From an uncultured Candidatus Saccharibacteria bacterium (lineage in GTDB: Bacteria > Patescibacteriota > Saccharimonadia > Saccharimonadales > JAUPVS01), in assembly GCA_964627095.1 (NCBI GenBank), contig CAZVKH010000005.1, positions 16,067-75,332 of the forward strand: a stretch of 59,266 nucleotides of DNA, read 5' to 3'. Shown piece after piece: positions 7,501 to 28,345 of this stretch (positions are counted from its first letter, which is position 1; the number at the start of each line of letters is the position of its first letter). The translations under genes and the position numbers were made by a program. The notes beneath the pieces were generated by a model that saw only the letters and a list, made by a program, of their open reading frames with translations, searched no databases and was not told the origin of the DNA.

Positions 7501-7922
7501 AAGTTCCAGGTGTCATTAAGGTCGGACAGGGCATAAGCCTTTTGGTAAACTCTAAACACTAAAAAGCCGACAAACAAGATATAGATGGCGATCAGGGCGT
7601 AGTGTACCTGCGGATGTTTCTCGTAGCTATGCCATCGGTCGTACCAGGCAACTTTTCGTCTTAGGTGCTCATGCGGACGCACCGCCACGTGATGATGAAC
7701 CACCTTACTGCCGCGGCGGACGCCCACCGCTGTTACGACAGCGATTTTCTTAGAATGCCGGGCCGTGGCAGCAGCACCACGTTTAGCCACTGGTTTAACT
7801 GTTTTGTGTGTTTTTTTAAGGGCTTTTACAGATGAGTCCTTGGCTACGCGTAACCCAGAACCGGCTTTTTTGGTTGCTTTTTTGACAAAAAGCAAGCTAG
7901 CAGTTTGCTTGTTTTTCCCCAT
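1551..7922 (-). CDS. Giant (2123 aa) N-terminally anchored surface protein: basic tail, TM helix, LamG-like domain, 14 propeller-like repeats, multiple FN3/Ig-like domains
   Basis: Single uninterrupted ORF. Lys/Arg/His-rich residues 1-100 are followed by the TM helix YALIAIYILFVGFLVF. LamG_3-type motifs are present (SLSLTGSHTVEGWVKF ... NWHHVAGRYNGTTMEIVVDG ... YIDARLDEVRVSN). The C-terminal half has repeated FN3-like modules (for example KISWSTDRASDSKV...TTYYLVAKWTDEDGN). Confidence 0.85.
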   Translation of the reverse strand: MGKNKQTASLLFVKKATKKAGSGLRVAKDSSVKALKKTHKTVKPVAKRGAAATARHSKKIAVVTAVGVRRGSKVVHHHVAVRPHEHLRRKVAWYDRWHSYEKHPQVHYALIAIYILFVGFLVFRVYQKAYALSDLNDTWNFSSAAPYNLSSGVETSGSSARLKAQNYDNDGNTAALYHLDSSSGTTATDSSSNSNNGSTSGTPSFVTGNLNNGLALNGSSQNASADDSASLSLTGSHTVEGWVKFNNAFSPGSHPYKQGVVDKGKYQLYYDNETGKVTYELENSGGMNWAQQAGGDLLNANGAKIKRSWDTNGKQNVTKQVKLGSYVYAALGGSSNDAEIWRYDTSGGTWEQVAGDGINSSWTNQVTANAFESVTALATDGTTYLYAGLGNNSGADSEVWRFNGTSWTKIGGDSTNSSWSAAGGYEAVASLAVNGSTVWAGLGTNAAGEAEVWRCTSCDTSPDWGGARIGGDGVNSSWANTTYETVSSMTLIGGNPVVGLGLTAGDGEVWQCTTNCASGTPVWTKRGGDGSGSGGQSWASAFEYVTGLAASGNFLYVGTGNSATDAQVWRCDISSSCTATAGWTKIAESTVTYWGTTHDQVWDIVANGTTVYVGLGNTANEDEVWRCTSCSTSPSWTKVGGDATNSSWNATHTQVQSLLVDGTTVYAGLSNTTLAHVWRCTSCDTSPAWGGARIGGQYRNKSWGQTGFQSVESTTTVGGKLYAGTGNTTAGNATVWEYDPATSAWTMIGGQGINSSWAADTFESVLSMVNYKNKLYVGIGSSTTDAEVWRYDGSSWTKVGGDGTGSSWNTSFETVDSLAVANGKLYAGIGNSAAGDGRVYECTNCDGTPAWTQIGGTASGNWGTAHFRVGSMVTYKGTLYAGIGFSTNQGRVYRYSGSGTTWTQVGGSGLFSSWNTSYEEVTSLAVYNDKLVAGLGLTGAGIGNSDAEVWSCTTCDATPSWTKIGGDSSDPPTDNLGWLESVGYERVRSMVVYNGDLYASLGLTAGDGEIYKYNGTTWTAIGGDGVGWTNNIIENVGTMTVFQGKLYAGMGDTANTDAMVWSYGDNGFAQASATTQDTNWHHVAGRYNGTTMEIVVDGAVTGSATKTLSMPDSTAQLYMGSGYGSGGASRDAGYIDARLDEVRVSNNYRSTLTTKPYSASAQTVTLASAVRTAGVKSFDNMTSNETANGGTIAYRLSNDGGTSWKHWNGSAWVESTDTSMSNAIATIDANIDEFPVGFGGITWQAVMTGDGTQQVTLDGVALASTSDSVDPNANASNITALKAAGGSSLAQNAWTNGASPYFSWTAGTDADSGIKGYCLYLGTDNTADPVTTKGLLGTSPVSTGNNCQFIVSSTSIDTATAGYIGTALTTSNSAYYLTVKAIDNAGNVADTGVQFYFRFDNTAPSNPGYITAPSGFINTKNATLTWPTSGVAAADDDNSGIAGLQYKIGNTTWYGDSHSGTGDSSDLLADDGSYTTSNSPDYANIAEGVNTVSFRTWDQAGNVTTSYVTAALKVNTSGAPSAPQGLAPSPSTNTVNAFSFSWFAPTTFIGDANNLTYCYTFNTLPSDSTCTYTNAGALSLGTGAYGTQPGLNTMYLVAKDESGNINYSNYTQADFTTNTPSPGMPLNVDIVDVSIKSTSNWRLALTWDVPSYTGAGIASYKVYRSTNNVTFSFVGSSTSTTYIDAGLSAQRYYYHVKACDSTNNCGSVSSDVDQIPTGKFTTPAAIVAEPTVSNVTTKKAKISWSTDRASDSKVAIGTASGQYASSEVGNSTQVSAHAIELDNLSAGTTYYLVAKWTDEDGNTGTSQEYTFTTSPAPSLKEVSAVRVGLTDATIQFTSKDATKVAVYYGKNEGYGGLKAVNTSLSESVYNVSLEGLDDGSKYFYKLVSSDSEGNSYEGTVASFTTPPRPRINNLRFQPVSGEPTSTQKVTWDTNVPSSTLVTYGKVGGGTTDAQLSEQVTSHEIVIKALEDDSEYTLIAQSRDADGNLAVSDRQTFRTALDTRPPKISNISIEPAIRGVGAEARGQVVVSWKTDEPSTSQVAFADGAGVTVFNSKTAEDSALSTEHVVIVSDLPTSRVYSMQPVSKDRSGNSGTGEIQSAIVGRASDSVLTIILNTLKKVFGF
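4728..6965 (-). repeat. Intragenic array of 14 degenerate ~50-61-aa repeats (beta-propeller-blade-like) inside the giant gene
   Basis: The recurring unit is W(T/G)x(I/V)GG(D/Q)G.NSSW...(F/Y)E.V.S(L/M)....G.LY(A/V)G(L/I)G.....(A/G)EVW(R/Q/S), anchored at aa 339, 398, 451, 508, 567, 623, 676, 734, 787, 838, 891, 948, 1009 and 1059. Seven units carry a C-x(2-5)-C pair right after the anchor (CTSC, CTTNC, CDISSSC, CTSC, CTSC, CTNC, CTTC). Confidence 0.75.
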
Positions 7923-16045: not shown

Positions 16046-16753
16046 ATGGCCGAACAACGACTACCGCTGGTTAATGGTGATGATGGCCAATGGGGCGATA
16101 TCATCAACCAGTTTATTGCCACTCAGCACTACAACAACACCGGTGTCGACGATCCCGAAAACGGCATGCACATGAAGGTGACCATAAGGGCGGGAACGGC
16201 CACGGGCGGCACGGCACCACTTAAATTCAACTCTGGCACACTACTTAGCACACCCGAAGCCGGGGCCGTTGAGTTTTTAACTGATCGCCTCTACCTTACC
16301 CAGACTACCAGCACCACCCGCAAGGTGATTGCCGCCTTCGACGACAGCAGCGGTGCCACCGGCGATGTCTACTACCGCGATGCCAGTGGTTATTTTGTGC
16401 GTTTGGGTATTGGCAGCGACAATCAGGTGCTCAGTATCGCCTCGGGTATACCCAGCTGGCGTCAGGCTATTTTTGCCGTTTCGACCCAAAGCGGCACCAG
16501 CTACAACATTTCCGCCAGCAACACCGTAGTTATCGCCGATGCCACCAGCAACAATGTCAGTATCGTTTTACCGGTGGCTTCAACAGTTACCGGCTACCGC
16601 TATTACATTAAACGCAAAGACGGTACTGGCAACAGCGTTACCATCGACCGTTCTGGCAGTGACACCATCGACGGCGCCACCAGCCAGACCCTGCAACAAC
16701 AATATACCTCGGCCACAGTCGTGTCCGACGGCTCTAACTGGTATATTATTTAG
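16046..16753 (+). CDS. Hypothetical protein with phage tail-fibre-like termini
   Basis: The N-terminus MAEQRLPLVNGDDGQWGDIINQFI resembles the W-G-x-x-(L/I)-N start of phage fibre/hyaluronidase-type proteins. The C-terminus is beta-rich (VSIVLP...GYRYYIKRKDGTGNSVTI...DGSNWYII). There is no signal peptide. It is the first gene of a tightly packed five-gene array. Confidence 0.55.
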   Translation: MAEQRLPLVNGDDGQWGDIINQFIATQHYNNTGVDDPENGMHMKVTIRAGTATGGTAPLKFNSGTLLSTPEAGAVEFLTDRLYLTQTTSTTRKVIAAFDDSSGATGDVYYRDASGYFVRLGIGSDNQVLSIASGIPSWRQAIFAVSTQSGTSYNISASNTVVIADATSNNVSIVLPVASTVTGYRYYIKRKDGTGNSVTIDRSGSDTIDGATSQTLQQQYTSATVVSDGSNWYII

Positions 16754-16755
16754 AC

Positions 16756-18222
16756 ATGACATATACGCCAGGCCTTAATGGGGGAAGAATCAACGCGACC
16801 ATCAGCGGCAACACGGCCGGAGCTGGTGCTTTAGTTTCGACCGGTACCATGACCCTGGCCGGCGGTAATAACATCACGCTTAGCCAGGCCGGCAACGCTA
16901 TTACAATTTCTGGGGCAGCCGGTGGTGGCGCTGGCTTTACGGCCGGCATGTCAACCCTAGGTAACACCAGCAACGAAACCGGCATGGCCACCAACCGCCT
17001 AGTTTTGGCCGGTGGTAACAATGTAACGCTCGAGCAATTCACTAGCAGCAACGGCAATACCATTGGCATCCACGCCGCCTCACAGACTGTTCAGACACAA
17101 AATATCCTAAATGGTTTCAGCGCCAGTGGTATATCCACGTCAGGAACCCTAGAATCAATTACTTCTGGCGGATTGTTCCTATATGGCAGTTTTGTCACTC
17201 AATCTCAAAATTCCGTTTCTTTAGGAATGGCCTCGCCCTACGCCCTGTCGGCCGGAATGAGTGGCGGCAATACAGCCGGTGGTGGTAACCTTATAGTCAA
17301 TAAAGCCCTCTACTTCGCTGGCGGCAATAACATAACCTTATCGAACTCCAACACTCTTGATGCCGGCTTTGGTGTCAGCCAAACAATCACAATCTCGGCT
17401 GCCAACCAGACCAACCAAACTGTTGGAATTTACGCTGCCAGCAACACTACCCAAAGCACCTCGGCAACAGTTGACGCCCGCTCTATGACTTTTGCCGGTG
17501 CCGGCGTGGCTTCGGTGGGTGCCAGCAACGGTAGCGTCGTTATATCGGTGCCATCAGGTGGCGGTGGTGGTGGCGACCTAGACTTTTACCAAAACATGGA
17601 CCGTGGTACCTCGGCCGCCCTAGGAACTGGCCTTAACACCCTGATGCTACAGCGCCTCAACCAAGAGAATAATGCACTTGGTCACAATGTTACCGCTAAC
17701 ACATTCTTAATGAACATGTCTGGTAACATGACTGCCACCTCATTGAGCTCCAGTCATAGTTATACTTTAAGTATTGGGGTCTACATAGACCAGGTAACTC
17801 GCTTGTCCCTGGTTAACTCGGCTACTACAACCTGGGGCTTTGCGGCCGCAACCAGCAACACCGCCAACTACCATGGACCCCGCTGGGTTTCTTTTGTATC
17901 AAGCCAGTGGTCGTCGGCACCAGCCTTTGCCAGCGGCAATGACTACGTATTTGGCGTGATAGCCAGCCGGGCAAACTATGGCGCACCACTTTCATATATT
18001 GGCCAGAACTATATGGTTTCGGCCCAAAGAAGTGGTACACTAGGCACCACAGTTGCTACTAACACTTCATTAGCTCAAGGAAACTACTGGAACGCCATGT
18101 TCTCTGCCACCCAATCATCACTACCAAGCACAATTGCATCAAATGCTGTTAACCGTAACAACGCCACAGCCATCTTTATGCCACATGTCATTCTTAATAA
18201 CCGCTACTCGGGAACCTTCTAG
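16756..18222 (+). CDS. Gly/Thr/Asn/Ser-rich repeat protein with (L/F)AGGNN(I/V)TL motifs
   Basis: 488-aa ORF starting 2 nt after the upstream stop. Three copies of the motif are present: LAGGNNITLSQAGNAITISGA, LAGGNNVTLEQF...IGIHAA and FAGGNNITLSNS...ITISAA. There is no signal peptide or TM helix. Confidence 0.6.
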   Translation: MTYTPGLNGGRINATISGNTAGAGALVSTGTMTLAGGNNITLSQAGNAITISGAAGGGAGFTAGMSTLGNTSNETGMATNRLVLAGGNNVTLEQFTSSNGNTIGIHAASQTVQTQNILNGFSASGISTSGTLESITSGGLFLYGSFVTQSQNSVSLGMASPYALSAGMSGGNTAGGGNLIVNKALYFAGGNNITLSNSNTLDAGFGVSQTITISAANQTNQTVGIYAASNTTQSTSATVDARSMTFAGAGVASVGASNGSVVISVPSGGGGGGDLDFYQNMDRGTSAALGTGLNTLMLQRLNQENNALGHNVTANTFLMNMSGNMTATSLSSSHSYTLSIGVYIDQVTRLSLVNSATTTWGFAAATSNTANYHGPRWVSFVSSQWSSAPAFASGNDYVFGVIASRANYGAPLSYIGQNYMVSAQRSGTLGTTVATNTSLAQGNYWNAMFSATQSSLPSTIASNAVNRNNATAIFMPHVILNNRYSGTF

Positions 18223-18223
18223 C

Positions 18224-18949
18224 ATGAAGCCACAGATCGTCATCCCGGACTATACCGGGCAACATAACAGCCGCAGCCACACCAACGCCCGGCTAACCAA
18301 GGGTAAGACCTACCAAGATCTGTCAACGATAATTATTTGCCCCACCCGTGGCCAAATTCCGGCCAAGGTAGTTCAAAGCTGGATGAACATGATGCGGCCA
18401 ATGAACCAAAAGGTGATTGGACCAATTTTTGCGATTGGCCTAGAAGTTGGTCATGCCTATAACAATATGCTCATGCAGATCATTAATAACCCAGGGTTGT
18501 CCGACTGGAAGTATATTCTTACTATAGAAGAGGACAACATGCCGCCACCGGATGGCCTGCTACGGCTCTACGAAAACATGGACGAATACGATGTAATTGG
18601 CGGCCTGTACTGGACCAAGGGCGAAGAAGGCCAGCCCATGATTTATGGCGACCCCAATGTCATGCCCAAGAATTTTATTCCGCAACTGCCGCAACCGGAT
18701 ACCATCCAACAAGCCAACGGCTTGGGAATGGGCTTTAACCTATGGAAGATGGAGATCTTTAAAGACAAGCGCCTCGATATCGGCGATTGGTTTAAAACCG
18801 AACAGAGCTACTTGCCAGGGCAGGGCGCCAAGGCCTACACTCAAGACCTCTACTTTTTTGAAAAAGCCGGGGCGCTGGGTTATAAGTTTGCTTGCGATAC
18901 CAGGGTTAAGGTGGGACACTACGACATAAATACGGATATAGTTTGGTAA
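18224..18949 (+). CDS. Putative GT-A-fold glycosyltransferase
   Basis: ATG 18224 lies 1 nt after the upstream stop, so the ORF-track start at 18134 overlaps the previous gene. Motifs include IIICPTRG, an acidic TIEEDN (DxD-like), and TQDLYFFEKA...VGHYD, typical of family-2-like transferases. Confidence 0.6.
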   Translation: MKPQIVIPDYTGQHNSRSHTNARLTKGKTYQDLSTIIICPTRGQIPAKVVQSWMNMMRPMNQKVIGPIFAIGLEVGHAYNNMLMQIINNPGLSDWKYILTIEEDNMPPPDGLLRLYENMDEYDVIGGLYWTKGEEGQPMIYGDPNVMPKNFIPQLPQPDTIQQANGLGMGFNLWKMEIFKDKRLDIGDWFKTEQSYLPGQGAKAYTQDLYFFEKAGALGYKFACDTRVKVGHYDINTDIVW

Positions 18950-18958
18950 GGAGAAGTC

Positions 18959-19570
18959 ATGCCCAGGAAAAATCTAAATTCTAAAACATCAAAACCCAAG
19001 AAGGTATTGAAGCTATCGTTGGCCTGTGGCGACAATAAGCCCAAAGGTTTTATGGGAGTGGACATTGCCAAAACCAAGTCGGCCGACTATGTCCAGGACC
19101 TATTAAAATTTCCTTGGAAACAGTTCAAGACTGGTTCGGTCGACGAAATCGAATGCTCTCACTTCGTCGAACATATTCCACACGGCGATGGCTACAACGA
19201 TCCATTCTTTCAGTTTTTTGACGAAATCCATCGCATTCTTAAGCCGGCCACGTTTGACCCCAATAATCCTAATGTGCCGTTAACCGGTTTTGCGACCATT
19301 ACCTGCCCGTACTACTCGAGCATGCGCGCCTGGCAAGACCCCACCCACCAGCGAGCCATCTCCGAAGCCAGCTTTTTGTATCTTAATAAACAGTGGCGTG
19401 TCGACAACCGACTAGACCACTACCCGGTAACTTGCGACTTTGACTTTAGCTACGGATACGTACTAAACCCCGAGTGGCAAAGCCGCAGCGAAGATGCCCG
19501 TAACTTTGCCGTCCAGCACTACATTAACTCCGTAAACGATATCCAAGTTATTCTTACCAAGCGAGGCTAA
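18959..19570 (+). CDS. Class I SAM-dependent methyltransferase
   Basis: SAM motif I LKLSLACGDNKPKGFMGVDI, then YVQDL and VDEIECSHFVEHIP. SD aaggag lies upstream. Confidence 0.72.
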   Translation: MPRKNLNSKTSKPKKVLKLSLACGDNKPKGFMGVDIAKTKSADYVQDLLKFPWKQFKTGSVDEIECSHFVEHIPHGDGYNDPFFQFFDEIHRILKPATFDPNNPNVPLTGFATITCPYYSSMRAWQDPTHQRAISEASFLYLNKQWRVDNRLDHYPVTCDFDFSYGYVLNPEWQSRSEDARNFAVQHYINSVNDIQVILTKRG

Positions 19571-19573
19571 CCA

Positions 19574-20464
19574 GTGCGCCTAGCTCTTCGCTTCGGTCTT
19601 GTCGGCGTCTTTGTTTTGGCGTTGGCGGGCACGGCGGTAGCAGCCACACCACAACGGCCACCGGGCGTACAAGTTAAGCCTTTGCGCGCCTATCCAAACC
19701 AAGCACCCGGCCAAACCACCAACGGCAGTTTTACTGTTACGAACAATACTGATCAGCCGCAAGAAGTCAGCTTTGCGGCCGAACGCTTCAAAACCATCGA
19801 CGAAGACTATAATTACGCCTTTGACAAAGATGTTATTACCGACTGGGTCGACTTTAAAGAACCGAACATGGAACTCAAACCCAAGCAAAGTAAGGTCCAA
19901 AATTATACTATTGCCGTACCGGCCGATGCCACACCTGGCGGTCGCTACATTGCCTTACTAACAAGCGTCACACCAAAGTCCGACCAGCAAAGCGTCACCC
20001 AGATCAACCGTGTTGCCTCGTTAGTATATTTAGAGGTTACCGGCAAGATAACCCGTACCGTTCAACTATTAAGCACTGATGTCCCCAGTCTTGTCGAGAA
20101 ACCCCAGACCGAGGCCATCATACGATTGGCCAACACCGGTAATAGCCACTATCGGGCTCGCGTCGGCCTATCGGTTGGGCGCTGGCCATCAACCAATAAT
20201 ATAACCAAGTCGCAACCAGAAACTGTTTTGCTACCAGGAACCGTTCGTAAAGTTTCCGAAACCATAAATTTACCTAAAATTCCAGGCGTTTACAAAATTA
20301 CTGTAGATTTTTCTCCGCCGCAAGGGGGCAAGACCAGTCTAACCCGCACCGTCGTGTACACACCGGTGTGGTTTATTGGCCTGTTTGTCGCTGTGCTGGG
20401 CGGGCTGGTTATATCTCTGTTTCGGTGGCGTTCGCGCAGTTCACGCAAAAAGAAGCAACAGTAG
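19574..20464 (+). CDS. Secreted two-domain protein with C-terminal TM anchor (CscA / DUF916-DUF3324-like), copy 1
   Basis: GTG start. Signal peptide LVGVFVLALAGTAVAA. Motifs LKPKQSKV...VPADATPGGRYIALL, NTGNSHY and LLPGTVRKV. C-terminal helix WFIGLFVAVLGGLVISLF plus RWRSRSSRKKKQQ. Clear paralog of 22136..23140. Confidence 0.62.
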   Translation: MRLALRFGLVGVFVLALAGTAVAATPQRPPGVQVKPLRAYPNQAPGQTTNGSFTVTNNTDQPQEVSFAAERFKTIDEDYNYAFDKDVITDWVDFKEPNMELKPKQSKVQNYTIAVPADATPGGRYIALLTSVTPKSDQQSVTQINRVASLVYLEVTGKITRTVQLLSTDVPSLVEKPQTEAIIRLANTGNSHYRARVGLSVGRWPSTNNITKSQPETVLLPGTVRKVSETINLPKIPGVYKITVDFSPPQGGKTSLTRTVVYTPVWFIGLFVAVLGGLVISLFRWRSRSSRKKKQQ

Positions 20465-20468
20465 CTAC

Positions 20469-21026
20469 CTATTCGGTTTGCGGTACGGCGGTGTATACAA
20501 CCGTACTGGTATAGTTACCGGCCGGCTTGGAATTATCTACTTTAACACCGTAGGTTACGGTTGTTGTATCACCTGAGCTAAACGGACCAACCCCATTCTT
20601 AATAAGTACGTCGCTAGCGGTAATGCCAACGTAGTTTGCGCCAGCATCGGTGTTGTAGCCCCAGGTATTAGTAGCCAGGGAAGCGGGCAGACCATTAGCA
20701 CTGGCCGGTATAGTAAAGGCGCCGTTGGCCATATCGGTGCTAGACAGCGATCTAATGTAGAGCTTATAGCCGACGACATCCGTTGAGGTAACTGTGACGG
20801 CATTATTGGCCGTACCTAGTGTACCGCTGTCGGTTGGGGTAACCTGAATTAAAACGTTACCACCGGTGCTGATCGACAAACTAGTGGCCGCGCCGTAGGG
20901 AACATTGGCGCCAAACTTACCGGTGCCAAAGGGCTGGGCGCCGACCACAACTGGTAAGGCAACGGTTATCCACAGACTAACCGCCACAATCAGCAATCTT
21001 AGTCCACGTAATCGGTTTGCATTCAT
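20469..21026 (-). CDS. Secreted beta-rich surface subunit, WxL-domain-like (Tyr variant)
   Basis: Signal peptide LLIVAVSLWITVALPVVVGAQP. Contains TVTSTDVVGYKLYI and the C-terminal PAGNYTSTVVYTAVPQTE, with Tyr where WxL proteins have Trp. Confidence 0.55.
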   Translation of the reverse strand: MNANRLRGLRLLIVAVSLWITVALPVVVGAQPFGTGKFGANVPYGAATSLSISTGGNVLIQVTPTDSGTLGTANNAVTVTSTDVVGYKLYIRSLSSTDMANGAFTIPASANGLPASLATNTWGYNTDAGANYVGITASDVLIKNGVGPFSSGDTTTVTYGVKVDNSKPAGNYTSTVVYTAVPQTE

Positions 21027-21076
21027 ACGTCGTATGTTACACTATGCTTATGGATAAATCACGGGGAGTGAGTATT

Positions 21077-22084
21077 GTGTTGAAGCGTTTTTCATATAAA
21101 TTCAGTGCTTTTATGTTCACTCTGGCTACCGTTCTTTTTGCCTTTAGCGGCACCGCCTCGGCCGCCCAAATGACATCGCGTAAAGTAACCATTGGTTCAT
21201 CGGTAGCATCAGCCACCACAACCTATTCGTTTAACTTCACCTTGCCATCGGCCACCGTTGTGCAGTCGTTTGGTGCTCAAATCTGTACCACCGCATCTGG
21301 TGCCTGTTCAACACCATCGGGCTTTTCACAATCCTCGTCTACGCTAACTGCTCAACCAACCAACCTTGGTGATGCTTCGGGCTGGACGGTGAGTACTGCG
21401 ACTTCGGGAGAATTGCGACTCAGTAAATCCGGCAACGTGGCCGCTCCTGGCGGTGCCGTAACCGTTGGCTTTAGTAACGTCGTTAACCCGAGTGCAACTA
21501 ACAGTACATTCTTTGCCCGCATGACAACCTACTCGGCCGCTAACTGGACTGGCGCCATCGACACCGGTACCGTCGCCGCCTCGACAGCTGGTCAAATTAC
21601 TGTTACCGCCAGTGTCGACGAAACGTTAACGTTTACACTATCGGCTGCCACCGTAGCTCTTGGCACATTAACCACCGCCACAACCGGCAGCGGCACCTCC
21701 ACCATGACCGCCTCAACCAACGGTACAACTGGCTATGCCATTACCGTAAACGGAGCCACTCTAACGTCGGGTGGTAACACTATAGCCGCGCTTGCTTCGC
21801 AAACAGCCTCGACCCAAAACTCTAGCCAGTTCGGCATCAACTTAAAAGCCAACACCACACCCAGCGTCGGCTCTGATGTAACTGGTACCGGCTCAGGTGC
21901 CGCCACCGCCAACTACGACACAGCCGATCAGTTCCGCTTCGTAACCGGTGATACCGTCGCCTCGGCCAGTGCCGCCACTAACTCGAACACCTTTACGGTC
22001 AGCTATATAGCCAACATTAGTGGCTCACAGCAAGCTGGTTCATACTCAACCACGCTAACCTACATTGCCACGGCAACATTCTAG
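21077..22084 (+). CDS. Secreted beta-rich surface subunit, WxL-domain-like (Tyr variant), large
   Basis: GTG 21077 follows SD ggggag and gives the signal peptide VLKRFSYKFSAFMFTLATVLFAFSGTASAAQ. Contains TNGTTGYAITVNG and ends AGSYSTTLTYIATATF. The ORF-track start at 21017 overlaps the divergent gene. Confidence 0.58.
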   Translation: MLKRFSYKFSAFMFTLATVLFAFSGTASAAQMTSRKVTIGSSVASATTTYSFNFTLPSATVVQSFGAQICTTASGACSTPSGFSQSSSTLTAQPTNLGDASGWTVSTATSGELRLSKSGNVAAPGGAVTVGFSNVVNPSATNSTFFARMTTYSAANWTGAIDTGTVAASTAGQITVTASVDETLTFTLSAATVALGTLTTATTGSGTSTMTASTNGTTGYAITVNGATLTSGGNTIAALASQTASTQNSSQFGINLKANTTPSVGSDVTGTGSGAATANYDTADQFRFVTGDTVASASAATNSNTFTVSYIANISGSQQAGSYSTTLTYIATATF

Positions 22085-22120
22085 ATACACTTTTTAGTTC
22101 CAGATATTAACACCAAATGA

Positions 22121-22126
22121 TATAAT
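22121..22126 (+). promoter_or_regulatory. Extended -10 box just upstream of a start codon
   Basis: TGaTATAAT lies 9 nt before ATG 22136. Confidence 0.45.
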
Positions 22127-22135
22127 TTCAACAAG

Positions 22136-23140
22136 ATGGGAAATCAGGGAATTTCGCGCGTCACCGAACGCCTGGTCATCGCTATAATCAGCGTCACCCT
22201 TATTCTGACCGCTTTTATCATTCCGCTGCTTTCACCAAAATTGGCTCACGCCGATGACTCGCAAGGCCTCCAGGTTTCGCCGGTAATCGTTGATCTGAAC
22301 AGCGAAAAGGGTGGTAGCTATAACCTAAAGCTAACCATCACCAACGTCACCGCCAACGTGCTCGATATCACCTCTAGCACCAACGACTTTACCGCCTCAG
22401 ACGAAACCGGCAACCCCAAAATCCTGACCGGTTCCGAAGATAACGACAATTCATATTCTTTGAAGTCCTGGGTTAGTGGCATCCCCGAACTCACACTGCA
22501 ACCCAAGCAAAGCCGGACCCTAACTTTTGCCGTTAATGTTCCGAGCAATGCCGAAGCTGGCGGACATTACGGGGTTATTCAGTTTATTGGCACACCACCG
22601 CCAAACCAGAGTCAGACCGTCTCGCTTAACGCCAGCGTTGGCGTCTTACTACTGGCGCGCGTGGCCGGGACTATCACCGAAAAAGTTGTCGTCAAGGATA
22701 TGTTCGGCGAACAAAATGGCAAGCGTCTAGGAGTAACGGCCAGCGGACCGGTTAATATCGTTACTCGCGTTAGCAACACTGGTAATGTTCACGTCAAGCC
22801 AATCGGCACCCTAACCGTTAAGAACATGTTCGGTCAGACTGCTAGCAGCTACCAATTTGGTGGCACCAATAAGAATGTTCTGCCTGGTACGACCCGCCGT
22901 TACGAACAAAGCTTTGATAAACGCTGGATGTTCGGTCGTTACACTGCCAAAGTAGAGGCTGCCTACGGCACCACAGGCGGCGTTCTGACGGGCGAAACTA
23001 GCTTTTGGGTTATACCATTCAGGTTCATCTTCTTGCTGCTTGTCAGCATCGTCGGGCTAGTTCTATTGATCCGCTTCTTACTTAAGCGCTACAATCAACG
23101 AATCATCCGCAAGTCCCAGCATAACCACAAAAAACGTTAG
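22136..23140 (+). CDS. Secreted two-domain protein with C-terminal TM anchor (CscA / DUF916-DUF3324-like), copy 2
   Basis: N-terminal hydrophobic signal. Motifs QVSPVIVDLN, LQPKQSRTL...VPSNAEAGGHYGVIQF, NTGNVHV and VLPGTTRRY. C-terminal helix FIFLLLVSIVGLVLLIRFLL plus a basic tail. Confidence 0.65.
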   Translation: MGNQGISRVTERLVIAIISVTLILTAFIIPLLSPKLAHADDSQGLQVSPVIVDLNSEKGGSYNLKLTITNVTANVLDITSSTNDFTASDETGNPKILTGSEDNDNSYSLKSWVSGIPELTLQPKQSRTLTFAVNVPSNAEAGGHYGVIQFIGTPPPNQSQTVSLNASVGVLLLARVAGTITEKVVVKDMFGEQNGKRLGVTASGPVNIVTRVSNTGNVHVKPIGTLTVKNMFGQTASSYQFGGTNKNVLPGTTRRYEQSFDKRWMFGRYTAKVEAAYGTTGGVLTGETSFWVIPFRFIFLLLVSIVGLVLLIRFLLKRYNQRIIRKSQHNHKKR

Positions 23141-23143
23141 GCA

Positions 23144-23878
23144 TTGATGATGCGGGCAGGGAGGGCACGTTTTGGTTCGAGCCGGCTGGTTTGGTCTTTT
23201 ATTCTTGTTGTGGCCTTACTAGCCACTGCGCTCAATCTGTCGTCCGCCAACCAAACCCAAGCCGTCAGCATCAACGGCAATCAGCCGATAACAGCCCTGG
23301 TTCTACCAATGCAACCAACCATACCGGCCATTATCGACTCGCCCAGCACCAACTCCACTGTCCAACAAACACCTCAAGTAGTAAGCGGTACTTGCCAGGC
23401 CACTCTTTTAGTTCGCATTACCAATAACGGACAGCTGGCTGGCTCAGCTACTTGCCAAGCCGATGGGACCTTTACGATCAACATCGTCTTATCAATTGGC
23501 GTGAATGTTCTGACGGCCCTTAACTACGATTCGTATGATCAGCCTGGCCCAGCCTCCGACCCAGTAACAATTACCGTAATCGAACCGGTGCCAAGCAGCA
23601 ATAACCAGCAGTCCACAGCCATGATAAGACAAGCCGTCGGAACGGATTCGCCGCAACTCATAACCAGTCTTCCTAATAAAGAACCGATTTTTCACGGTAC
23701 TGCCCTAGGGCCGCTCGCCAAGCTACTTGGTATCGACCAAGCTGTGACGCGACAATTCAACCAAACCTTCGCCATAATACTGTCGTTATTTACCGTGTCA
23801 TTAGCCGTACTAATTTTCATCATCCTGTTCAGCAGGCGCCTACTGCAATTGCTAGCCGCCTTGTTCGCAAAGCTTTAA
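23144..23878 (+). CDS. Membrane-anchored protein with Ig-like domain
   Basis: Signal/anchor LVWSFILVVALLATAL. An Ig-like segment has two Cys (VVSGTCQATLLVRITNNGQLAGSATCQADGTFTI). C-terminal TM helix FAIILSLFTVSLAVLIFIILF. It starts 3-9 nt after the upstream stop. Confidence 0.5.
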   Translation: MMMRAGRARFGSSRLVWSFILVVALLATALNLSSANQTQAVSINGNQPITALVLPMQPTIPAIIDSPSTNSTVQQTPQVVSGTCQATLLVRITNNGQLAGSATCQADGTFTINIVLSIGVNVLTALNYDSYDQPGPASDPVTITVIEPVPSSNNQQSTAMIRQAVGTDSPQLITSLPNKEPIFHGTALGPLAKLLGIDQAVTRQFNQTFAIILSLFTVSLAVLIFIILFSRRLLQLLAALFAKL

Positions 23879-23937: not shown

Positions 23938-24150
23938 ACTGTCAAGCCATGTGTGGGCTGGCCAATTTTTTGGACTTCCTCCATACAGACTTCATTTCAG
24001 GCAACCACACCGTTTCGGTCACTGCGCGCCTCATATCTAACATTCAGCTTCTTGCGTTCAAAAGTACATCATAGCGGTGATCTACTCTTGCAAGCAGCTC
24101 AACTCCAAAATCCGTTTACCTCAGTAATAACATCTGATAGGAGTTTAGAT

Positions 24151-24399
24151 ATGGAATCAATCAATAGTATCGTCAACGTTAGTGCCTTCTACTTTCACCG
24201 CAGCCCGCACAGTTTAAAGTCATTCCCACGCCAAATCGAATTCGGCAATACCCGCTGCACTTTTAAAGATGGTTTTCAGTACCTAGTAAAGAACGGGGAG
24301 AGAATAGTGCGCCTATTCGACATGACCGATGGTCAGACAACCTACCGCCTACGCAACGAGAACGACAGCTGGGTATTAGTTGGAACCAGACCGGCTTAG
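24151..24399 (+). CDS. Small hypothetical protein (82 aa)
   Basis: SD ataggag lies 8 nt before ATG 24151. The 66 upstream codons of ORF 23953..24399 are low-complexity S/T/F/L and look non-coding. Confidence 0.45.
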   Translation: MESINSIVNVSAFYFHRSPHSLKSFPRQIEFGNTRCTFKDGFQYLVKNGERIVRLFDMTDGQTTYRLRNENDSWVLVGTRPA

Positions 24400-25340
24400 C
24401 TAGATTTGGGCTGTGTGGTGAACAATTTTACAAAGATGATAAAGCCAACCAAGATTACCGGGAAGATCACACCCAGCCCAATCAACGCCGCTTTGTCGTA
24501 AGCCTGCGCCCCGTAGGCTGTGTCCAATAGTCCTGGGTAGAGTAAATAGGGACGATTGGCCAGAGCCCACACCACCGGCGCCGCGATTGCCACCACCGAC
24601 AAGCCCCACCACAAACGCTGTTCTTTATGAGTCAGTAAAAGTACTGCTGTAAATAGCAGTAGAAGATCCAACAAAACTGTCCAGGCCACAAACGGTGCTC
24701 CCATAAGATGATTAGTCGAGCTGGTCAGAACCGTCTGCAAGCCCAAAGTCCCCAGACCAGCAAAGGCCACTGTTAAACCGGTAGAAGTCAGTCGCAGGCG
24801 ATTTGATATGGCTTGCTGACGAGAAAGGCTATATTGCATAAAGCTAACGGCCAGCGCCAATATTCCGGCTAGAGCCGTGGCGGCAAACACCCAGCCAGTT
24901 GTTGTCTGCCAGAACTGGGCACCTGTCAGCAGACGAATACCAGCCGCCGCAAAGCACATCGGCACTAGCAGGCTGACCAAAACAAACAGGGCATTACCGA
25001 CATTCCAACCAAGTTGGTTGCGGTGGTAGTACAAGTAAAGCACCAAACAACCCCGCGCCACGATACCAACCATCGCCAAGGTTAAAACTGTAAAGACGGC
25101 TTCGCTGGTGGCTTGTAGACCGTTATTAAAGAAGACCACAAAACCGGTAAAGCCAAACACTAAAAAGACGTTAGTAATTTCCCATAGTGGTGTGAACATA
25201 TTGCGATTGGTGCCAGTATCAAGCCCACGGCGGCCAGTGATACGCAACAAGCCAATCCCTAGCTCTAAGCTACTCATCCAGCCATAAACACCGAACAGCA
25301 ACGCTACCAAGAACAGAGCGATTTCAGGCATCGACATCAC
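24396..25340 (-). CDS. cydB: Cytochrome bd-type oxidase subunit II
   Basis: 314-aa polytopic membrane protein immediately downstream of cydA, overlapping it by 17 nt. Confidence 0.82.
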   Translation of the reverse strand: MMSMPEIALFLVALLFGVYGWMSSLELGIGLLRITGRRGLDTGTNRNMFTPLWEITNVFLVFGFTGFVVFFNNGLQATSEAVFTVLTLAMVGIVARGCLVLYLYYHRNQLGWNVGNALFVLVSLLVPMCFAAAGIRLLTGAQFWQTTTGWVFAATALAGILALAVSFMQYSLSRQQAISNRLRLTSTGLTVAFAGLGTLGLQTVLTSSTNHLMGAPFVAWTVLLDLLLLFTAVLLLTHKEQRLWWGLSVVAIAAPVVWALANRPYLLYPGLLDTAYGAQAYDKAALIGLGVIFPVILVGFIIFVKLFTTQPKSS

Positions 25341-26640
25341 GTACCGCCTGGTGGTTCATAGTTTTACGCAGGATAACAACCGCCAACACTAGCAGGGTTA
25401 AGAAGAATACCGGGAAGATAAAGCCAAACTTGATAACCGCCTGGTTGGTAGTCAAGGCGTCCGCCACCTTCAAATAGCCATGCACGATGTAGGGCTGTCG
25501 GCCCAATTCGGTCAGGAGCCAGCCGAACATGGTGGCAAAGACCGCTAAAACACCACATGACATCAGGGCGATAAGCATCGGTTTGCTATAGGCTGCCCGG
25601 CGCTTTTTAAAGACCAGTAGCCCTAGGAACAGACTAGGGATCAATACTATTAGGATGCCGCAGAGCACCATGCCGTCAAAGAAATAGTGCACTACTAAAC
25701 TCGGCCGCTCATCCTCCGGGAACTCGTTCAGGCCTTTGACTTCGGCGCCAAAGTTATTGGCAGCCAGGAAGCTTAGTAGGCTAGGTATCTTAATTCCGTA
25801 TTTAATCTCGCCATCTTTAACGATTCCGCCAATTGTTAACGGAGCATTTCTTTGGGTTTCCATCAAACCTTCAGCCGCCGCCAATTTATAAGGCTCGTGT
25901 TTGGCCAAGTATTTACCAGACTGGTCACCAACTATGGCCGTCAGAATTCCAAATACCAGGCCAACGATCGCCAAAGCCACAATTACTTTCTTAAACCAAG
26001 GCCGGTCAGCCTGGTGCTTTTTCTTTAGGTAGAGCCAGATGTAGATTGATAAGAACACAAAGGCGCAGGCCGTAATATAACCCAGTATCGAATGCACCAC
26101 TGTCGTATAGGTAGCGGGGTTAAACATCGCTTGGAAGGTATTACTCTCGATCGGGTTACCATCTTGGCCGAGTAAAAAGCCTCGTGGCTGATTCATGAAA
26201 GCATTAACTGTGGTGATAAACACGGCTGAGCCCATCGAGCCGATCACCATCGGGATACTGCACAGCCAGTGATAGATCGGTTTAAAGCGATCCCACGACA
26301 GCATGTAGATACTCAAGAAGACGGCTTCTATCATAAAGAAGGTGCCCTCGAGGGCAAAGGCCAGACCAACCGGCTTGTTAATAAACTCCAAGAAGCGCGG
26401 CCAGAACAAGTTGAATTGTAAGCTGATCACAGTTCCCGACACGGCACCGACTACAAATAAAATTACCAGCGCCTTCGACCAAGTTCGGGCCAGTGCTCGA
26501 GCCTTGGGTCGGTGACGGACAATACCATATAGTTCGGTAGCCGAAATTAACAGCGGTAGAGCCACGCCAAAGATAATGAATAGGAGGTGAAAGGCCAGGC
26601 TATCACCCATTAATGCTCGTCCGGCTGAAACTCTTTCCAT
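25324..26640 (-). CDS. cydA: Cytochrome bd-type oxidase subunit I
   Basis: The N-terminal pattern SLAFHLLFIIFGVALPLL, with a heme-ligand-type His, and the overall 9-TM layout fit CydA. At 438 aa it is a short Q-loop form. Confidence 0.88.
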   Translation of the reverse strand: MERVSAGRALMGDSLAFHLLFIIFGVALPLLISATELYGIVRHRPKARALARTWSKALVILFVVGAVSGTVISLQFNLFWPRFLEFINKPVGLAFALEGTFFMIEAVFLSIYMLSWDRFKPIYHWLCSIPMVIGSMGSAVFITTVNAFMNQPRGFLLGQDGNPIESNTFQAMFNPATYTTVVHSILGYITACAFVFLSIYIWLYLKKKHQADRPWFKKVIVALAIVGLVFGILTAIVGDQSGKYLAKHEPYKLAAAEGLMETQRNAPLTIGGIVKDGEIKYGIKIPSLLSFLAANNFGAEVKGLNEFPEDERPSLVVHYFFDGMVLCGILIVLIPSLFLGLLVFKKRRAAYSKPMLIALMSCGVLAVFATMFGWLLTELGRQPYIVHGYLKVADALTTNQAVIKFGFIFPVFFLTLLVLAVVILRKTMNHQAVRDVDA

Positions 26641-26692: not shown

Positions 26693-28345
26693 CTAGAAAT
26701 GCTCGCGGATGTGCGAAAAACTGTAGTCCCAAGTGGCATCGGTCTTCTTGTGCGGATTGAACAAGTTGCTCGGATCAAAGATCGTTTTGGTATCCTTGAA
26801 CAGTTCTAAAATTTTGGGCCCGTACATTTGTTTGAGCCAGGGGCCGCGCACTAAGCCGTCGTTATGCTCGCCGCTTAAAGAGCCGTGATACTTCAGGACC
26901 AGTTCGTTGACTTCGCGCATGGCCGGTGCCAGCTTGCGCCTTTCTTTAGGATCTTCTAACTTCATCAGGGGAATAACATGGAAGTTGCCATCGCCCATGT
27001 GCCCAGCCACGGTGGCCAGCAAGCCATACTTGTTAATAATCGTGCGCAGCTTAGGTAAAAACTCTGGTAGGTAAGGGGGCGGCACCACTAGGTCATCAAT
27101 AAAGGGGGCGGTGTGCTTGTCTTTGACCTTTTTGCGCAACAGGTTGAAACTTTCGCGGCGCATCACGCGGAACTTCCAGGCCTTCTCGACAGTATTATCT
27201 TCTTCGATCGCTTCTAGTTTGAAGGGCTTGAGGTCGGCGTGCATAGCTTTAATTTTTTGATCAACTTCTTCCTGCGAGGTACCAGTGAACTCAATCAGCA
27301 TAATCAGTTTGGGGATACCTTTCAAAAGAATCAGCGCATCGGGAATGAGTTGCAGGGCGAGTTTTATAAGCTTGCCCCAGCCTAGGGTTTTCCTAAAGTA
27401 GAAGAAGAATTTAATCGATAACTTGAGTGTGTAGTTGTCGAATGATTCAAAAGTGGCTGGATGGCGCGCCATAACAACGTTGATGATTTCGCCGAGTTGG
27501 TTCATGTCCTTCATAAAGCAGACCAGGACGCCACTGTAGGCCGGATTGGGTACCAGACGAAACTTGATGTCGGTCACAAAACCTAAGGTACCTTGGGCGC
27601 CCACGATCAGCTTGGTTAAGTCAAAAACGCCAGTCTCGCGATCCCAAACATCCCACAAGTTGTAGCCTGTCGAGTTCTTGCTGACCTTGGGCTTGGCTGC
27701 CTTAATGGCATCGTAATGCTTTTCGATAAGATTAAAGGTTTGTTTGTACAAACGGCCTTCAAAGTTTTTTTGAGCCATCTTGGCAACCAGTTCACGCCGG
27801 TTCAGCGGCTTAACGGTGTACTCATTGCCGTCGGCAAAAACCACCTTAAGTTCGGTTACAAAATCTTCGGTTTTACCAAACTCCAAGGATTTTTCGCCGC
27901 CTGAATTGTTATTAACCATACCGCCAACCGTACATAATTCGCGACTGGCCGGGAAACTCGGCAACAGGGCACCATGCTTAAGGGTTTGGGGTTCAAAATC
28001 ACGATAGAAAACACCCGGCTGAACCTGGGCAGTCGTAGCCGTTACCTTATGAACTTTGCGAAAGTGCTTATTAAAATCAACAATGATTGAATCATTAATG
28101 GCACCACCCGACATGTCGGTGCCGGCGCTACGGGCTGTTAATGACAGACCGGTCTGCGTTTTTTTGGCGGCCGCTACCATTTGCACCAGCTTTTGCACGT
28201 CCTGGCTGTCCTTGGGCATAACCACCGCCTGAGGTGTTAGCTCGAACATCGAGGCGTCATGGCTATAAAAATCGCGCGTCTCTTGGCTGGTATCGGTTTC
28301 GCCACTAAAGCCAGCTTGCTTCAGTTTCAGAATGAGCTCGTCCAT
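26693..28345 (-). CDS. FAD-linked oxidase (D-lactate dehydrogenase / GlcD-like)
   Basis: N-terminal FAD_binding_4-type region (VVMPKDSQDVQKLV, GTDMSGG, GGMVNNNSGGEKS) and a C-terminal FAD-oxidase domain (GSLSGEHNDGLVR). Confidence 0.85.
   Translation of the reverse strand: MDELILKLKQAGFSGETDTSQETRDFYSHDASMFELTPQAVVMPKDSQDVQKLVQMVAAAKKTQTGLSLTARSAGTDMSGGAINDSIIVDFNKHFRKVHKVTATTAQVQPGVFYRDFEPQTLKHGALLPSFPASRELCTVGGMVNNNSGGEKSLEFGKTEDFVTELKVVFADGNEYTVKPLNRRELVAKMAQKNFEGRLYKQTFNLIEKHYDAIKAAKPKVSKNSTGYNLWDVWDRETGVFDLTKLIVGAQGTLGFVTDIKFRLVPNPAYSGVLVCFMKDMNQLGEIINVVMARHPATFESFDNYTLKLSIKFFFYFRKTLGWGKLIKLALQLIPDALILLKGIPKLIMLIEFTGTSQEEVDQKIKAMHADLKPFKLEAIEEDNTVEKAWKFRVMRRESFNLLRKKVKDKHTAPFIDDLVVPPPYLPEFLPKLRTIINKYGLLATVAGHMGDGNFHVIPLMKLEDPKERRKLAPAMREVNELVLKYHGSLSGEHNDGLVRGPWLKQMYGPKILELFKDTKTIFDPSNLFNPHKKTDATWDYSFSHIREHF

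Follow-up and report, generated by a model that had tools for sequence, protein, structure and literature searches.

Background

The Pam pilus is a recently described system of the ultra-small CPR/Saccharibacteria, reported from Ca. Mycosynbacter amalyticus (Troman et al., bioRxiv 10.64898/2026.03.03.709456). Cryo-EM showed that PamA and PamB of M. amalyticus, the only proteins for which filament formation has been demonstrated, form filaments by donor-strand exchange, in which the interdomain linker is both the donated strand and the most conserved region. PamC and PamD were described as PapD/FimC-like proteins of two Ig domains and a TM helix, PamT as a single-domain tip subunit without linker strand, and PamR as an RbmA-like protein that has a strand at its N-terminus and a TM helix at its C-terminus. 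The evidence comes from one preprint, in which the chaperone, tip and anchor roles are based on AlphaFold and not on experiment, and which leaves the evolutionary origin of Pam pili open (bioRxiv 10.64898/2026.03.03.709456).

A second system of interest is formed by the WxL (Csc) clusters of Lactobacillales and Listeria. Their hallmark is a pair or more of WxL-domain proteins, each with two Trp-x-Leu motifs, encoded next to the WxL-interacting protein. A minimal cluster encodes a small subunit consisting of the domain only, a larger subunit with the domain at the C-terminus, and a WxL-interacting protein (WxLIP) with a TM helix (PMC9772566, PMC10599100). The WxLIP has the architecture DUF916+DUF3324+TM (PMC10599100, PMC9772566; PDB 9i1y, 9i25), and the clusters are currently viewed as static peptidoglycan-bound complexes (PMC10599100, PMC9772566).

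Organization and conservation of the operon

The sequence studied was a stretch of 59,266 nt (the window), in which a block of five genes occupies positions 19574-23878. The block, from a member of the Saccharimonadia (CPR/Patescibacteria), is very probably an operon for a Pam-type pilus. In all likelihood it is a typical copy and encodes a pair of chaperones anchored in the membrane, a tip-like subunit, a pilin that polymerises and a protein serving as membrane anchor. All five ORFs called in a first-pass annotation were found in the ORF listing of the window at the coordinates and on the strands given there (5/5). A Kyte-Doolittle scan of the five proteins revealed an N-terminal hydrophobic segment in each (5/5) and a C-terminal TM segment only in the two ~300-aa paralogs and the fifth protein; the signal peptides and C-terminal anchors proposed earlier are thus real. 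The first-pass annotation had further proposed that the exported set makes up a fibre or adhesion system at the surface of a bacterium with a small genome; this is upheld here, the genes being strongly co-conserved and the bacterium a member of the CPR. Its description of the system as new had to be abandoned because the subunits belong to an already named family, the Pam pilins of CPR bacteria, members of which form donor-strand-exchange filaments proven by cryo-EM.

The window resembles the published Pam system in that the C-terminal domain of its major pilin belongs to the same family, with a score exceeding the NCBIfam cutoff, this pilin consists of two domains and a conserved linker and is accompanied by a single-domain subunit, two membrane-anchored PapD-like chaperone paralogs are encoded, an Ig-type protein with a C-terminal TM helix partly matches PamR, usher, sortase and ATPase are absent, and the host lineage is Saccharimonadia. 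It differs in that the set is minimal, with one polymerising pilin as compared to PamA, PamB and PamE; the small subunit is not a PamT equivalog and is encoded on the opposite strand; the PamR-like protein is a short one-domain form; and the pilin shows a single invariant Cys pair (C70, C77), compared with the two or three reported (three in PamB). The neighbours are cytochrome bd and a putative glycosyltransferase/methyltransferase pair in the window, whereas ATP synthase and CorB/MFS are reported for relatives of M. amalyticus.

Conservation of the operon was established by comparing gene order among 80 Saccharimonadia loci, in which the block proved to be strongly co-conserved. The arrangement of the window was the commonest: the order chaperone A (+), small subunit (-), pilin (+, 1-5 copies), chaperone B (+) and PamR-like gene (+) occurred in about 45 of the 80 loci, 27 of which showed exactly the order of the window, and a shorter form (small subunit, pilin, chaperone B, PamR-like gene) in about 25 of the 80. 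Chaperone A is present in the ~45 loci with the window-type arrangement, whereas chaperone B is the universal chaperone and is followed by the PamR-like gene in nearly all loci. Relatives of chaperone B were detected in 340 GTDB species-representative genomes, essentially all of them Saccharibacteria.

Pilin subunits

The major two-domain Pam-type pilin (21077-22084, plus strand, 335 aa) comprises a signal peptide (residues 1-29), an N-terminal beta-sandwich (~30-165), a linker (~166-186) and a C-terminal Pam pilin domain (187-335). Compared with the Pam models of NCBIfam 20.0 (NF058578/79/81), it yielded 171.3 bits with NF058581 (CPR_Pam_pilin_C; cutoff 55), which places the pilin domain in this family. 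The homologs number more than 2480, and the best 120 of them are 64-96% identical. The GTG start at 21077 is preceded by a Shine-Dalgarno-like site (GGGGAG), and the length counted from this start equals that of a 96%-identical homolog (P0121).

The interdomain linker (residues 166-186, VAASTAGQITVTASVDETLTF; 21572..21634, plus strand) is the most conserved stretch of the pilin, with a mean column identity of 0.92 at residues 166-180 and 0.87 at residues 181-195. In the AF2 monomer, which has two beta domains and a mean pLDDT of 80, the linker is unstructured (pLDDT <50 at residues 169-181). It is the putative donor strand, its conservation matching the cryo-EM-based description of PamA/PamB.

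Apart from its signal peptide, the small single-domain subunit (20469-21026, minus strand, 185 aa) consists of a Pam-pilin C-type domain (residues 54-184) alone, with no C-terminal TM segment in the Kyte-Doolittle scan. An iterative HMM seeded from the C-terminal domain of the pilin recruited it over the whole model (E=1.2e-30), whereas the score with CPR_Pam_pilin_C (20.9 bits) was below the cutoff of 55 and the cutoff of the PamT model was not reached; genuinely PamT-like proteins are found at other loci. Within the subunit family as a whole, 66 of 85 members matched CPR_Pam_pilin_C and 56 of 85 matched PamT (best E=2e-94). Since the 185-aa protein has neither a donor-strand linker nor an anchor, it is a putative tip or initiator subunit of PamT-like architecture.

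When the whole-chain model of the pilin was compared using Foldseek, the matches were confined to generic adhesins of two domains, for example ClfB and SdrG (E ~2e-4). Ig-like folds are generic, and promoter and terminator scans were uninformative on operon structure, so that one might think of a chance cluster of unrelated Ig-like adhesins or an envelope layer without chaperone-assisted polymerisation, or else of a sortase-dependent pilus. Such explanations are very improbable in view of the strict gene order over dozens of species, the one specific C-terminal domain common to the subunits, the Pam NCBIfam score above cutoff and a chaperone-like fold that carries a membrane tether. Regarding sortase, a regex scan for LPXTG was negative for the five proteins and for the C-terminal region of every ORF of the window, in agreement with the first-pass annotation, which had reported the lack of an LPXTG (CscD-like) partner; in the lack of this sorting signal the pilins of the window differ from sortase-dependent pili.

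PamR-like protein

In the fifth protein (23144-23878, plus strand, 244 aa), a signal peptide and an N-terminal strand are followed by a single Ig domain (Big_6), a spacer and a TM helix at the C-terminus (~205-242). Its earlier description as Ig-like and C-terminally anchored is borne out by the Pfam Big_6 match (32.3 bits, gathering score 27.6) and the TM segment at 205-242. The match to the NCBIfam PamR model (NF058578; 92.7 bits, E=1.8e-26) is confined to the first half of the model (positions 11-147 of 297) and is well below the equivalog cutoff of 300; most members of the family measure 300-400 aa, and this one, of 244 aa, is a short form. The consensus of the conserved N-terminal strand in the PamR-like family, sGSVxVxAxV, resembles the pilin linker AGQITVTASV. 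From the partial PamR match we infer a PamR-like terminator/anchor of short form.

Putative chaperone paralogs

Paralog A (19574-20464, plus strand, 296 aa) and paralog B (22136-23140, plus strand, 334 aa) are 26% identical over 290 aa (E=1e-15), and the motifs KPKQS...GG(R/H)Y, NTGN.H and LPGT.R, which had been quoted together with the claim of paralogy, are in register in the pairwise alignment. Paralog A starts with a signal peptide, followed by two Ig-like beta-sandwich domains, a TM helix near the C-terminus (~259-286) and an R/K tail; its hydrophobic segments lie at residues 1-27 and 259-286. In paralog B, a signal peptide or anchor helix precedes two Ig-like domains, after which come a TM helix (residues 295-333) and a basic tail; the AF2 model of this paralog (pLDDT 85) consists of two beta-sandwiches and the helix 295-333. 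The predicted architecture of both, two Ig domains and a C-terminal TM helix, is that of PamC/PamD. No NCBIfam model matched either paralog.

Both paralogs are genuinely related to the Firmicute WxL-interacting proteins (CscA/WxLIP-like). Pfam PF06030 (WxLIP_PGBD, DUF916) was matched by paralog B with 27.7 bits (gathering score 27.3) and by 39 of the 45 chaperone family members, whereas paralog A remained below the gathering score (17 bits). In profile comparisons using hhalign, the paralog A family (ORFs of 45 loci) aligned with Firmicute WxLIP over 222 columns (96.1%, E=3e-9), the paralog B family aligned with genuine Firmicute WxLIP at 93% probability, and the merged A+B profile reached 97.8% (E=1e-12) with both domains aligned; the alignments run through the second domain, to template column 276. 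A Foldseek search of the PDB with the model of paralog B gave the WxLIP of E. faecium as best matches (9i1y and 9i25_C, E=3e-10 to 6e-9). The CscA/DUF916 assignment of the first-pass annotation is therefore borne out by both profile and structural similarity; of its DUF916+DUF3324 architecture, the first part holds and the second domain is spanned by hhalign, but the Pfam DUF3324 (HBD) model was not among the matches of any of the 45 family members. This link between Pam pili and WxL clusters at the chaperone level, not mentioned in the Pam preprint, is what the present analysis adds.

The next Foldseek matches were the chaperone-usher chaperones YadV, CfaA, Caf1M and FimC (E 1e-8 to 1e-7), which establishes the similarity of the two-Ig-domain fold to these proteins. 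Pfam models of PapD_N, PapD_C (PF00345/PF02753) and usher gave no match at E<=1 among the proteins of the block.

Comparison with WxL clusters

The likeness to WxL/Csc clusters extends beyond the homology of the chaperones to WxLIP by profile over both domains and by fold: the cluster grammar is identical to that of the minimal WxL cluster (small domain-only subunit, larger subunit, WxLIP; PMC9772566, PMC10599100), all products are exported, and in WxL clusters a strand of the WxLIP is predicted to enter the WxL domain, as on the principle of a chaperone. The locus might accordingly be taken for a Csc/WxL-type surface complex, a non-filamentous adhesion platform whose secreted proteins are divergent WxL proteins with Tyr for Trp, held non-covalently on the wall by membrane-anchored WxLIP/CscA-like proteins. 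The Tyr motifs on which the first-pass annotation had relied are real and are a signature of the whole subunit family, the G-Y motif occurring in 173-180 and the G-x-Y-...-Y motif in 153-178 of 182 sequences. At low stringency, hhalign placed the C-type domains of the Pam pilins (Pam-C) and the WxL domain collinearly (LG with FG, G-Y-x-I with G-W-x-L, Y-x-T-T-L-T-Y with Y-x-T-T-L-T-W), and the spacing of the motifs is similar (94-109 residues in Pam-C, ~106 in small WxL proteins). The score of this alignment, 18.3, compares with a maximum of 12.2 in 30 column-shuffled controls, but it equals that of unrelated beta-sandwich pairs (17-19) and corresponds to a probability of 1%.

The remaining results speak against WxL subunits. 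Pfam WxL (PF13731) was matched at E<=1 by none of the 85 subunit family members, including both subunits of the window; Trp was found at either motif position in none of 182 Pam-C domains and Tyr in place of Trp in none of 22 WxL domains; and the solved WxL chain 9i25_A was absent among the best 50 matches listed by Foldseek for the pilin model. In Firmicute WxL loci the best matches of the Pam-C HMM were the WxLIPs and not the WxL proteins, and the terminal G-x-Y strand therefore looks generic. The homologous PamA and PamB are experimentally filaments, and the pilin linker carries a donor-strand signature, whereas WxL proteins are described as peptidoglycan-bound complexes and belong to a different phylum; the window also has no LPXTG partner, which is frequent but not obligatory in WxL clusters. 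The Csc/WxL-type complex is thus an improbable explanation of the locus as compared to a Pam operon, and it is not demonstrated that the subunits are WxL proteins.

A tentative wider reading is that Pam pili and Firmicute WxL/Csc clusters branched from a single ancient assembly system of bacteria with one membrane; this system would be usher-less and use a membrane-tethered chaperone. The Pam pilin C-terminal domain and the WxL domain would then be homologous, which is doubtful but fits the collinear motifs and their similar spacing; of this common ancestry, the chaperone half is well supported here and the subunit half is not. If it is true, WxL clusters also use strand complementation and perhaps polymerise. 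Small WxL proteins have a conserved N-terminal strand and a Pro-rich linker, an arrangement that fits strand complementation in WxL clusters.

Proposed assembly of the pilus

For the Pam-type operon of the window, we infer the following division of roles and sequence of assembly steps. Sec would export all five products, and both paralogs would remain tethered to the cytoplasmic membrane by their C-terminal helix as PapD/WxLIP-like chaperones, each capping with a beta-strand of its own the incomplete Ig fold in the C-terminal domain of an exported subunit. The 185-aa subunit, which has an acceptor domain and no donor linker, would therefore initiate the fibre and form its distal tip. Copies of the 335-aa pilin could then join head to tail by donor-strand exchange, the linker strand of each displacing the chaperone strand in the preceding subunit, until the N-terminal strand of the fifth protein enters the last pilin and ends growth; the TM helix of this protein would anchor the fibre. 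The scheme would require no usher, sortase or ATPase. Incomplete Ig-like subunits and the proposed assembly by donor-strand complementation and exchange are shared with chaperone-usher pili; the system of the window differs from these in having TM-tethered chaperones, no outer-membrane usher and no outer membrane, and a donor strand that is the interdomain linker instead of an N-terminal extension. The fibre probably serves for reach and attachment to a host bacterium.

To our knowledge, Pam pili are the sole non-type-IV filaments so far known in CPR bacteria, and they are thought to make first contact with the host cell. Hundreds of Saccharimonadia genomes contain five "hypothetical" genes that are accounted for once the operon is recognised. 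The layout of the window, in which a single pilin and a single tip-like subunit are combined with two chaperones and an anchor, is the minimal and commonest one, which makes it convenient to use in reconstitution. The chaperones, being homologous to WxLIP, give a first lead on the origin of Pam pili. Their homology also suggests that WxL clusters in lactobacilli, enterococci and Listeria, so far poorly understood, may share the logic of chaperones and strand complementation.

Genomic neighbourhood

Four tightly packed genes on the plus strand precede the operon. The first (16046-16753) encodes a 235-aa protein, which recurs upstream of the operon in about 40 of the 80 loci. The second (16756-18222) encodes a Gly/Asn/Thr repeat protein of 488 aa that lacks a signal peptide. 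The gene of a putative glycosyltransferase (18224-18949) follows, and then that of a putative methyltransferase (18959-19570), which ends 3 bp ahead of chaperone A. The glycosylation/methylation operon proposed in the first-pass annotation is only weakly supported, with a PHROG glycosyltransferase match (E=8.5e-5) for the former enzyme and a match below threshold to Pfam Methyltransf_11 (E=0.017) for the latter. The trio of repeat protein, glycosyltransferase and methyltransferase occurs in only 6-7 of the 80 loci, and the genes at 16046..19570 are regarded as accessory or context. Among these upstream genes there was also a PHROG baseplate match (2.4e-5), and like the two enzyme matches it is a weak annotation.

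Classification and features of the locus

The five-gene block is very probably an ordinary, widespread Pam-type pilus operon. The Pam pilus system was reported in a 2026 preprint, in which PamA and PamB were identified as pilins by cryo-EM of Ca. Mycosynbacter amalyticus filaments and polymerisation was described as donor-strand exchange (10.64898/2026.03.03.709456). Besides these two pilins, the Pam operon encodes PamE, also a pilin, and PamT, which has a single domain. It further carries two PapD/FimC-like chaperones (PamC and PamD), each with a C-terminal transmembrane (TM) helix, and PamR, which is RbmA-like, has a TM helix and was suggested to stop fibre growth and to serve as the anchor (10.64898/2026.03.03.709456). 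The window block has the same parts list in minimal form: chaperone A (19574-20464, plus strand, 296 aa), a small subunit (20469-21026, minus strand, 185 aa), a pilin (21077-22084, plus strand, 335 aa), chaperone B (22136-23140, plus strand, 334 aa) and a PamR-like fifth protein (23144-23878, plus strand, 244 aa). The locus thus belongs to a kind already described in 2026, and the new surface-fibre or adhesion system proposed in the first-pass annotation is not borne out.

In the ORF listing of the window all five ORFs lie exactly where that annotation had placed them. Chaperones A and B are paralogs as claimed (26% identity over 290 aligned aa, E=1e-15, pairwise protein comparison), and the motifs quoted for them line up in the alignment. 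A hydrophobicity scan confirmed the predicted signal peptides and C-terminal anchors, with an N-terminal signal-like hydrophobic segment in 5/5 block proteins and a C-terminal TM segment only in both paralogs and the fifth protein. GGGGAG lies ahead of the pilin GTG start at 21077, and the protein that this start gives agrees in length with a 96%-identical homolog. A promoter and terminator scan did no better than on shuffled sequence.

Two other types of pilus were considered and rejected: a sortase pilus, because no LPXTG was found in the block proteins or near the C-terminus of any ORF in the window (the absence of an LPXTG partner had been noted before), and the classical chaperone-usher pathway, because the block proteins include neither an usher nor a PapD Pfam match.

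Conservation and host range

Across the GTDB species representatives, 340 genomes carry a relative of chaperone B, and virtually all of these are Saccharibacteria/Saccharimonadia. Saccharibacteria have natural competence (PMC10633639). Layouts were determined by HMM labelling of 80 retrieved loci, a set that does not include the M. amalyticus genome. The window-type layout, i.e., chaperone A (+), small subunit (-), pilin (+, 1-5 copies), chaperone B (+) and PamR-like protein (+), was seen in about 45 loci (27 exact), so that the expected co-conservation of the block in relatives holds; a shorter layout, consisting of small subunit (+), pilin, chaperone B and PamR-like protein, occurred in about 25 loci. 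The nearest of the 80 loci (L001) is from a river-water Patescibacteria MAG and shows 85-98% amino-acid identity.

In the window the small subunit gene lies antisense amid the co-directional genes of the operon, 4 bp from the stop of the upstream gene and 50 bp from the pilin start. In about 45 of the 80 loci the gene is inverted in the same way; in loci without chaperone A the small subunit is encoded on the same strand as the other operon genes. One locus (L050, DATLJN010000065.1) is a 9.3-kb contig assigned to a Magnetospirillaceae MAG, although its Pam-type operon is typical of Saccharimonadia; it is most likely a binning contaminant rather than a case of horizontal transfer.

Pilin subunits and anchor

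Models of the "Pam pilus system" of CPR bacteria were taken from NCBIfam 20.0. The pilin matched CPR_Pam_pilin_C with 171 bits (cutoff 55), the fifth protein gave a partial match to PamR (92.7 bits, cutoff 300), and the small subunit gave a weak match, to the final strand of this domain of the pilin. An iterative HMM seeded with the pilin C-domain and searched against all ORFs of the 80 loci picked up the small subunit along the entire domain (E=1e-30), which makes this linker-less protein a single-domain member of the pilin subunit family. Among 85 diverse subunits from the 80 loci, 66 matched Pam_pilin_C and 56 matched PamT.

AF2 modelled the pilin (pLDDT 80) as two beta domains with a low-confidence join at residues 169-181. 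Residues 166-195 are the best conserved part of the protein, and the donated linker of PamA and PamB is likewise the most conserved region (10.64898/2026.03.03.709456). A strand conserved at the N-terminus of the PamR-like family, sGSVxVxAxV, is similar to the pilin linker AGQITVTASV and would be consistent with a role as terminating donor strand. PDB sequence searches with pilin, chaperone and family profiles returned nothing meaningful, PamA and PamB structures apparently being absent from the searched set or too divergent; Foldseek with the whole two-domain pilin model matched only generic two-domain adhesins.

Relationship of the chaperones to WxLIPs

The locus had been read as a Csc/WxL-type surface complex, in which the two paralogs would be CscA (DUF916+DUF3324, or WxLIP) proteins and the secreted subunits WxL domains with Tyr for Trp. 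The chaperone half of this reading stands; the subunit half is unproven, the defining WxL feature having been tested for and not found.

Regarding the chaperones, AF2 modelled chaperone B (pLDDT 85) as two beta-sandwiches with a helix at the C-terminus (295-333). Its best PDB folds in Foldseek were structures of the E. faecium WxLIP that were released recently, 9i1y and 9i25 chain C (E=3e-10 to 6e-9), followed by the chaperone-usher chaperones YadV, CfaA, Caf1M and FimC, and by RbmA. The gathering score of Pfam WxLIP_PGBD (DUF916) was reached by this paralog, and 39/45 family members match. For profile comparison, genuine Firmicute WxL clusters were recovered from metagenomes by scanning for the published WxLIP motif NQIDKxxxYFDLK; as a check on the recovered set, one WxLIP matched 9i1y at E=1e-43. 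In hhalign the WxLIP profile was matched by the chaperone B family with a probability of 93% (E=3.3e-7, 223 columns), by the chaperone A family with 96.1% (E=3.2e-9, 222 columns) and by the merged A+B profile with 97.8% (E=1.1e-12, 217 columns), each alignment covering both domains, whereas unrelated control pairs reached <=1% (E=0.055-0.51). The CscA/DUF916 assignment is therefore correct on Pfam, fold and profile-profile evidence, and Pam-type chaperones are homologous to Firmicute WxLIPs at the level of both sequence and structure.

This link is what is new here relative to the Pam preprint, which mentions neither WxL nor DUF916 nor Csc (10.64898/2026.03.03.709456). Together with the parallel cluster grammar of WxL clusters and the Pam block, it gives a clue, open to testing, as to where the Pam pilus came from and how WxL clusters work.

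Relationship of the subunits to WxL domains

Pfam WxL (E<=1) gave 0 matches for both window subunits and 0/85 among the family members. The Pam pilin C-terminal domain (Pam-C) was compared with WxL (n=22) by hhalign, using a low-diversity and then a high-diversity profile (182 sequences). The modes were default, low-mact and global, and the controls consisted of reversed and column-shuffled profiles and unrelated families. The 182-sequence profile reached a non-significant 1% probability, and default settings aligned only the last strand. The low-stringency alignment was collinear and placed G-Y-x-I opposite G-W-x-L and Y-x-T-T-L-T-Y opposite Y-x-T-T-L-T-W, exactly the motif pairs proposed in the first-pass annotation; its score of 18.3 was above the reversed controls (12.3-12.6) and the column-shuffled maximum (12.2), and no better than unrelated beta-sandwich pairs (17-19). 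At the two aromatic positions Pam-C (n=182) has Tyr, rarely Phe, Leu or others, WxL (n=22) strictly Trp, with no intermediates. The WxL chain 9i25_A was not in the Foldseek top 50 of the full pilin model (both domains together).

In reciprocal HMM searches with filters off, Pam-C ORFs made up 17 of the top 50 (base rate 9%). This enrichment was rejected as evidence of WxL homology, as the scores were 4-9 bits and the reverse search favoured WxLIPs: the Pam-C model ranks these above WxL proteins, and the terminal G-x-Y strand therefore appears generic. With evidence that is negative or inconclusive, the identity of the subunits as WxL domains is unproven.

Small WxL proteins of the recovered Firmicute clusters (L081-L109; e.g., L081:7711-8499(-), L083:8496-9239(+)) carry a short conserved beta-strand-like segment after the signal peptide (SNGQITFEPN, SNGAITFE, SKTDVTFIE, TVKFKAG), followed by a Pro/Asp-rich linker and the WxL domain. 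Both the Pam pilin linker AGQITVTAS and the N-terminal extension seen in pilins of chaperone-usher systems are similar to this strand, a hint that WxL clusters may use strand complementation.

Proposed assembly

The present analysis demonstrates the domain families and architectures, the homology of the chaperones and the conservation of the operon; filament structure is demonstrated for homologs only (10.64898/2026.03.03.709456). The most likely course of assembly is as follows, with the roles of all individual window proteins inferred. All parts would be exported via Sec, and the membrane-tethered chaperones would cap the open C-domain of every new subunit. The linker-less small subunit would nucleate the tip, polymerisation would proceed by exchange of the pilin linker strand into the previous subunit, and the PamR-like protein would end and anchor the fibre through its N-terminal strand.

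Neighbouring genes

Four tightly packed genes (16046-19570, gaps of 1-9 bp) lie immediately upstream of chaperone A. The first of them, a 235-aa gene, recurs in about 40 of the 80 loci and is probably the "tail fibre-like" gene named as a Pam operon neighbour (10.64898/2026.03.03.709456). A prophage tail module was dismissed, as it rested only on the weak PHROG baseplate/tail match of this gene, itself a conserved chromosomal neighbour. A trio encoding a 488-aa protein (Gly/Asn/Thr repeats, no signal peptide, no family match), a putative glycosyltransferase and a putative methyltransferase accompanies the operon in only 6-7 of the 80 loci. The annotation of the trio is weak, and so is the support for the adjoining glycosylation/methylation operon described earlier. 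Pilin modification is a possible function of these genes, a PamA serine having been reported as modified (10.64898/2026.03.03.709456).

Directly downstream of the pilus block, and also in the closest MAG, L001, are genes for subunits I and II of a cytochrome bd oxidase (Pfam E=1e-107 and 2e-19) and for an FAD-linked oxidase (24396-26640(-) and 26693-28345(-)). These genes serve respiration or the handling of oxygen, whereas the genome is otherwise of the reduced CPR type. A giant ORF of 2123 aa (1551-7922(-)) may encode another large surface protein; its sole Pfam match, near residues 1730-1810, is to the N-terminal (FnIII-like) domain of purple acid phosphatase. Immediately after the PamR-like gene, a 148-aa ORF (23953-24399(+)) with no family match is kept in the two closest loci (98% in L001, 72% in L002).
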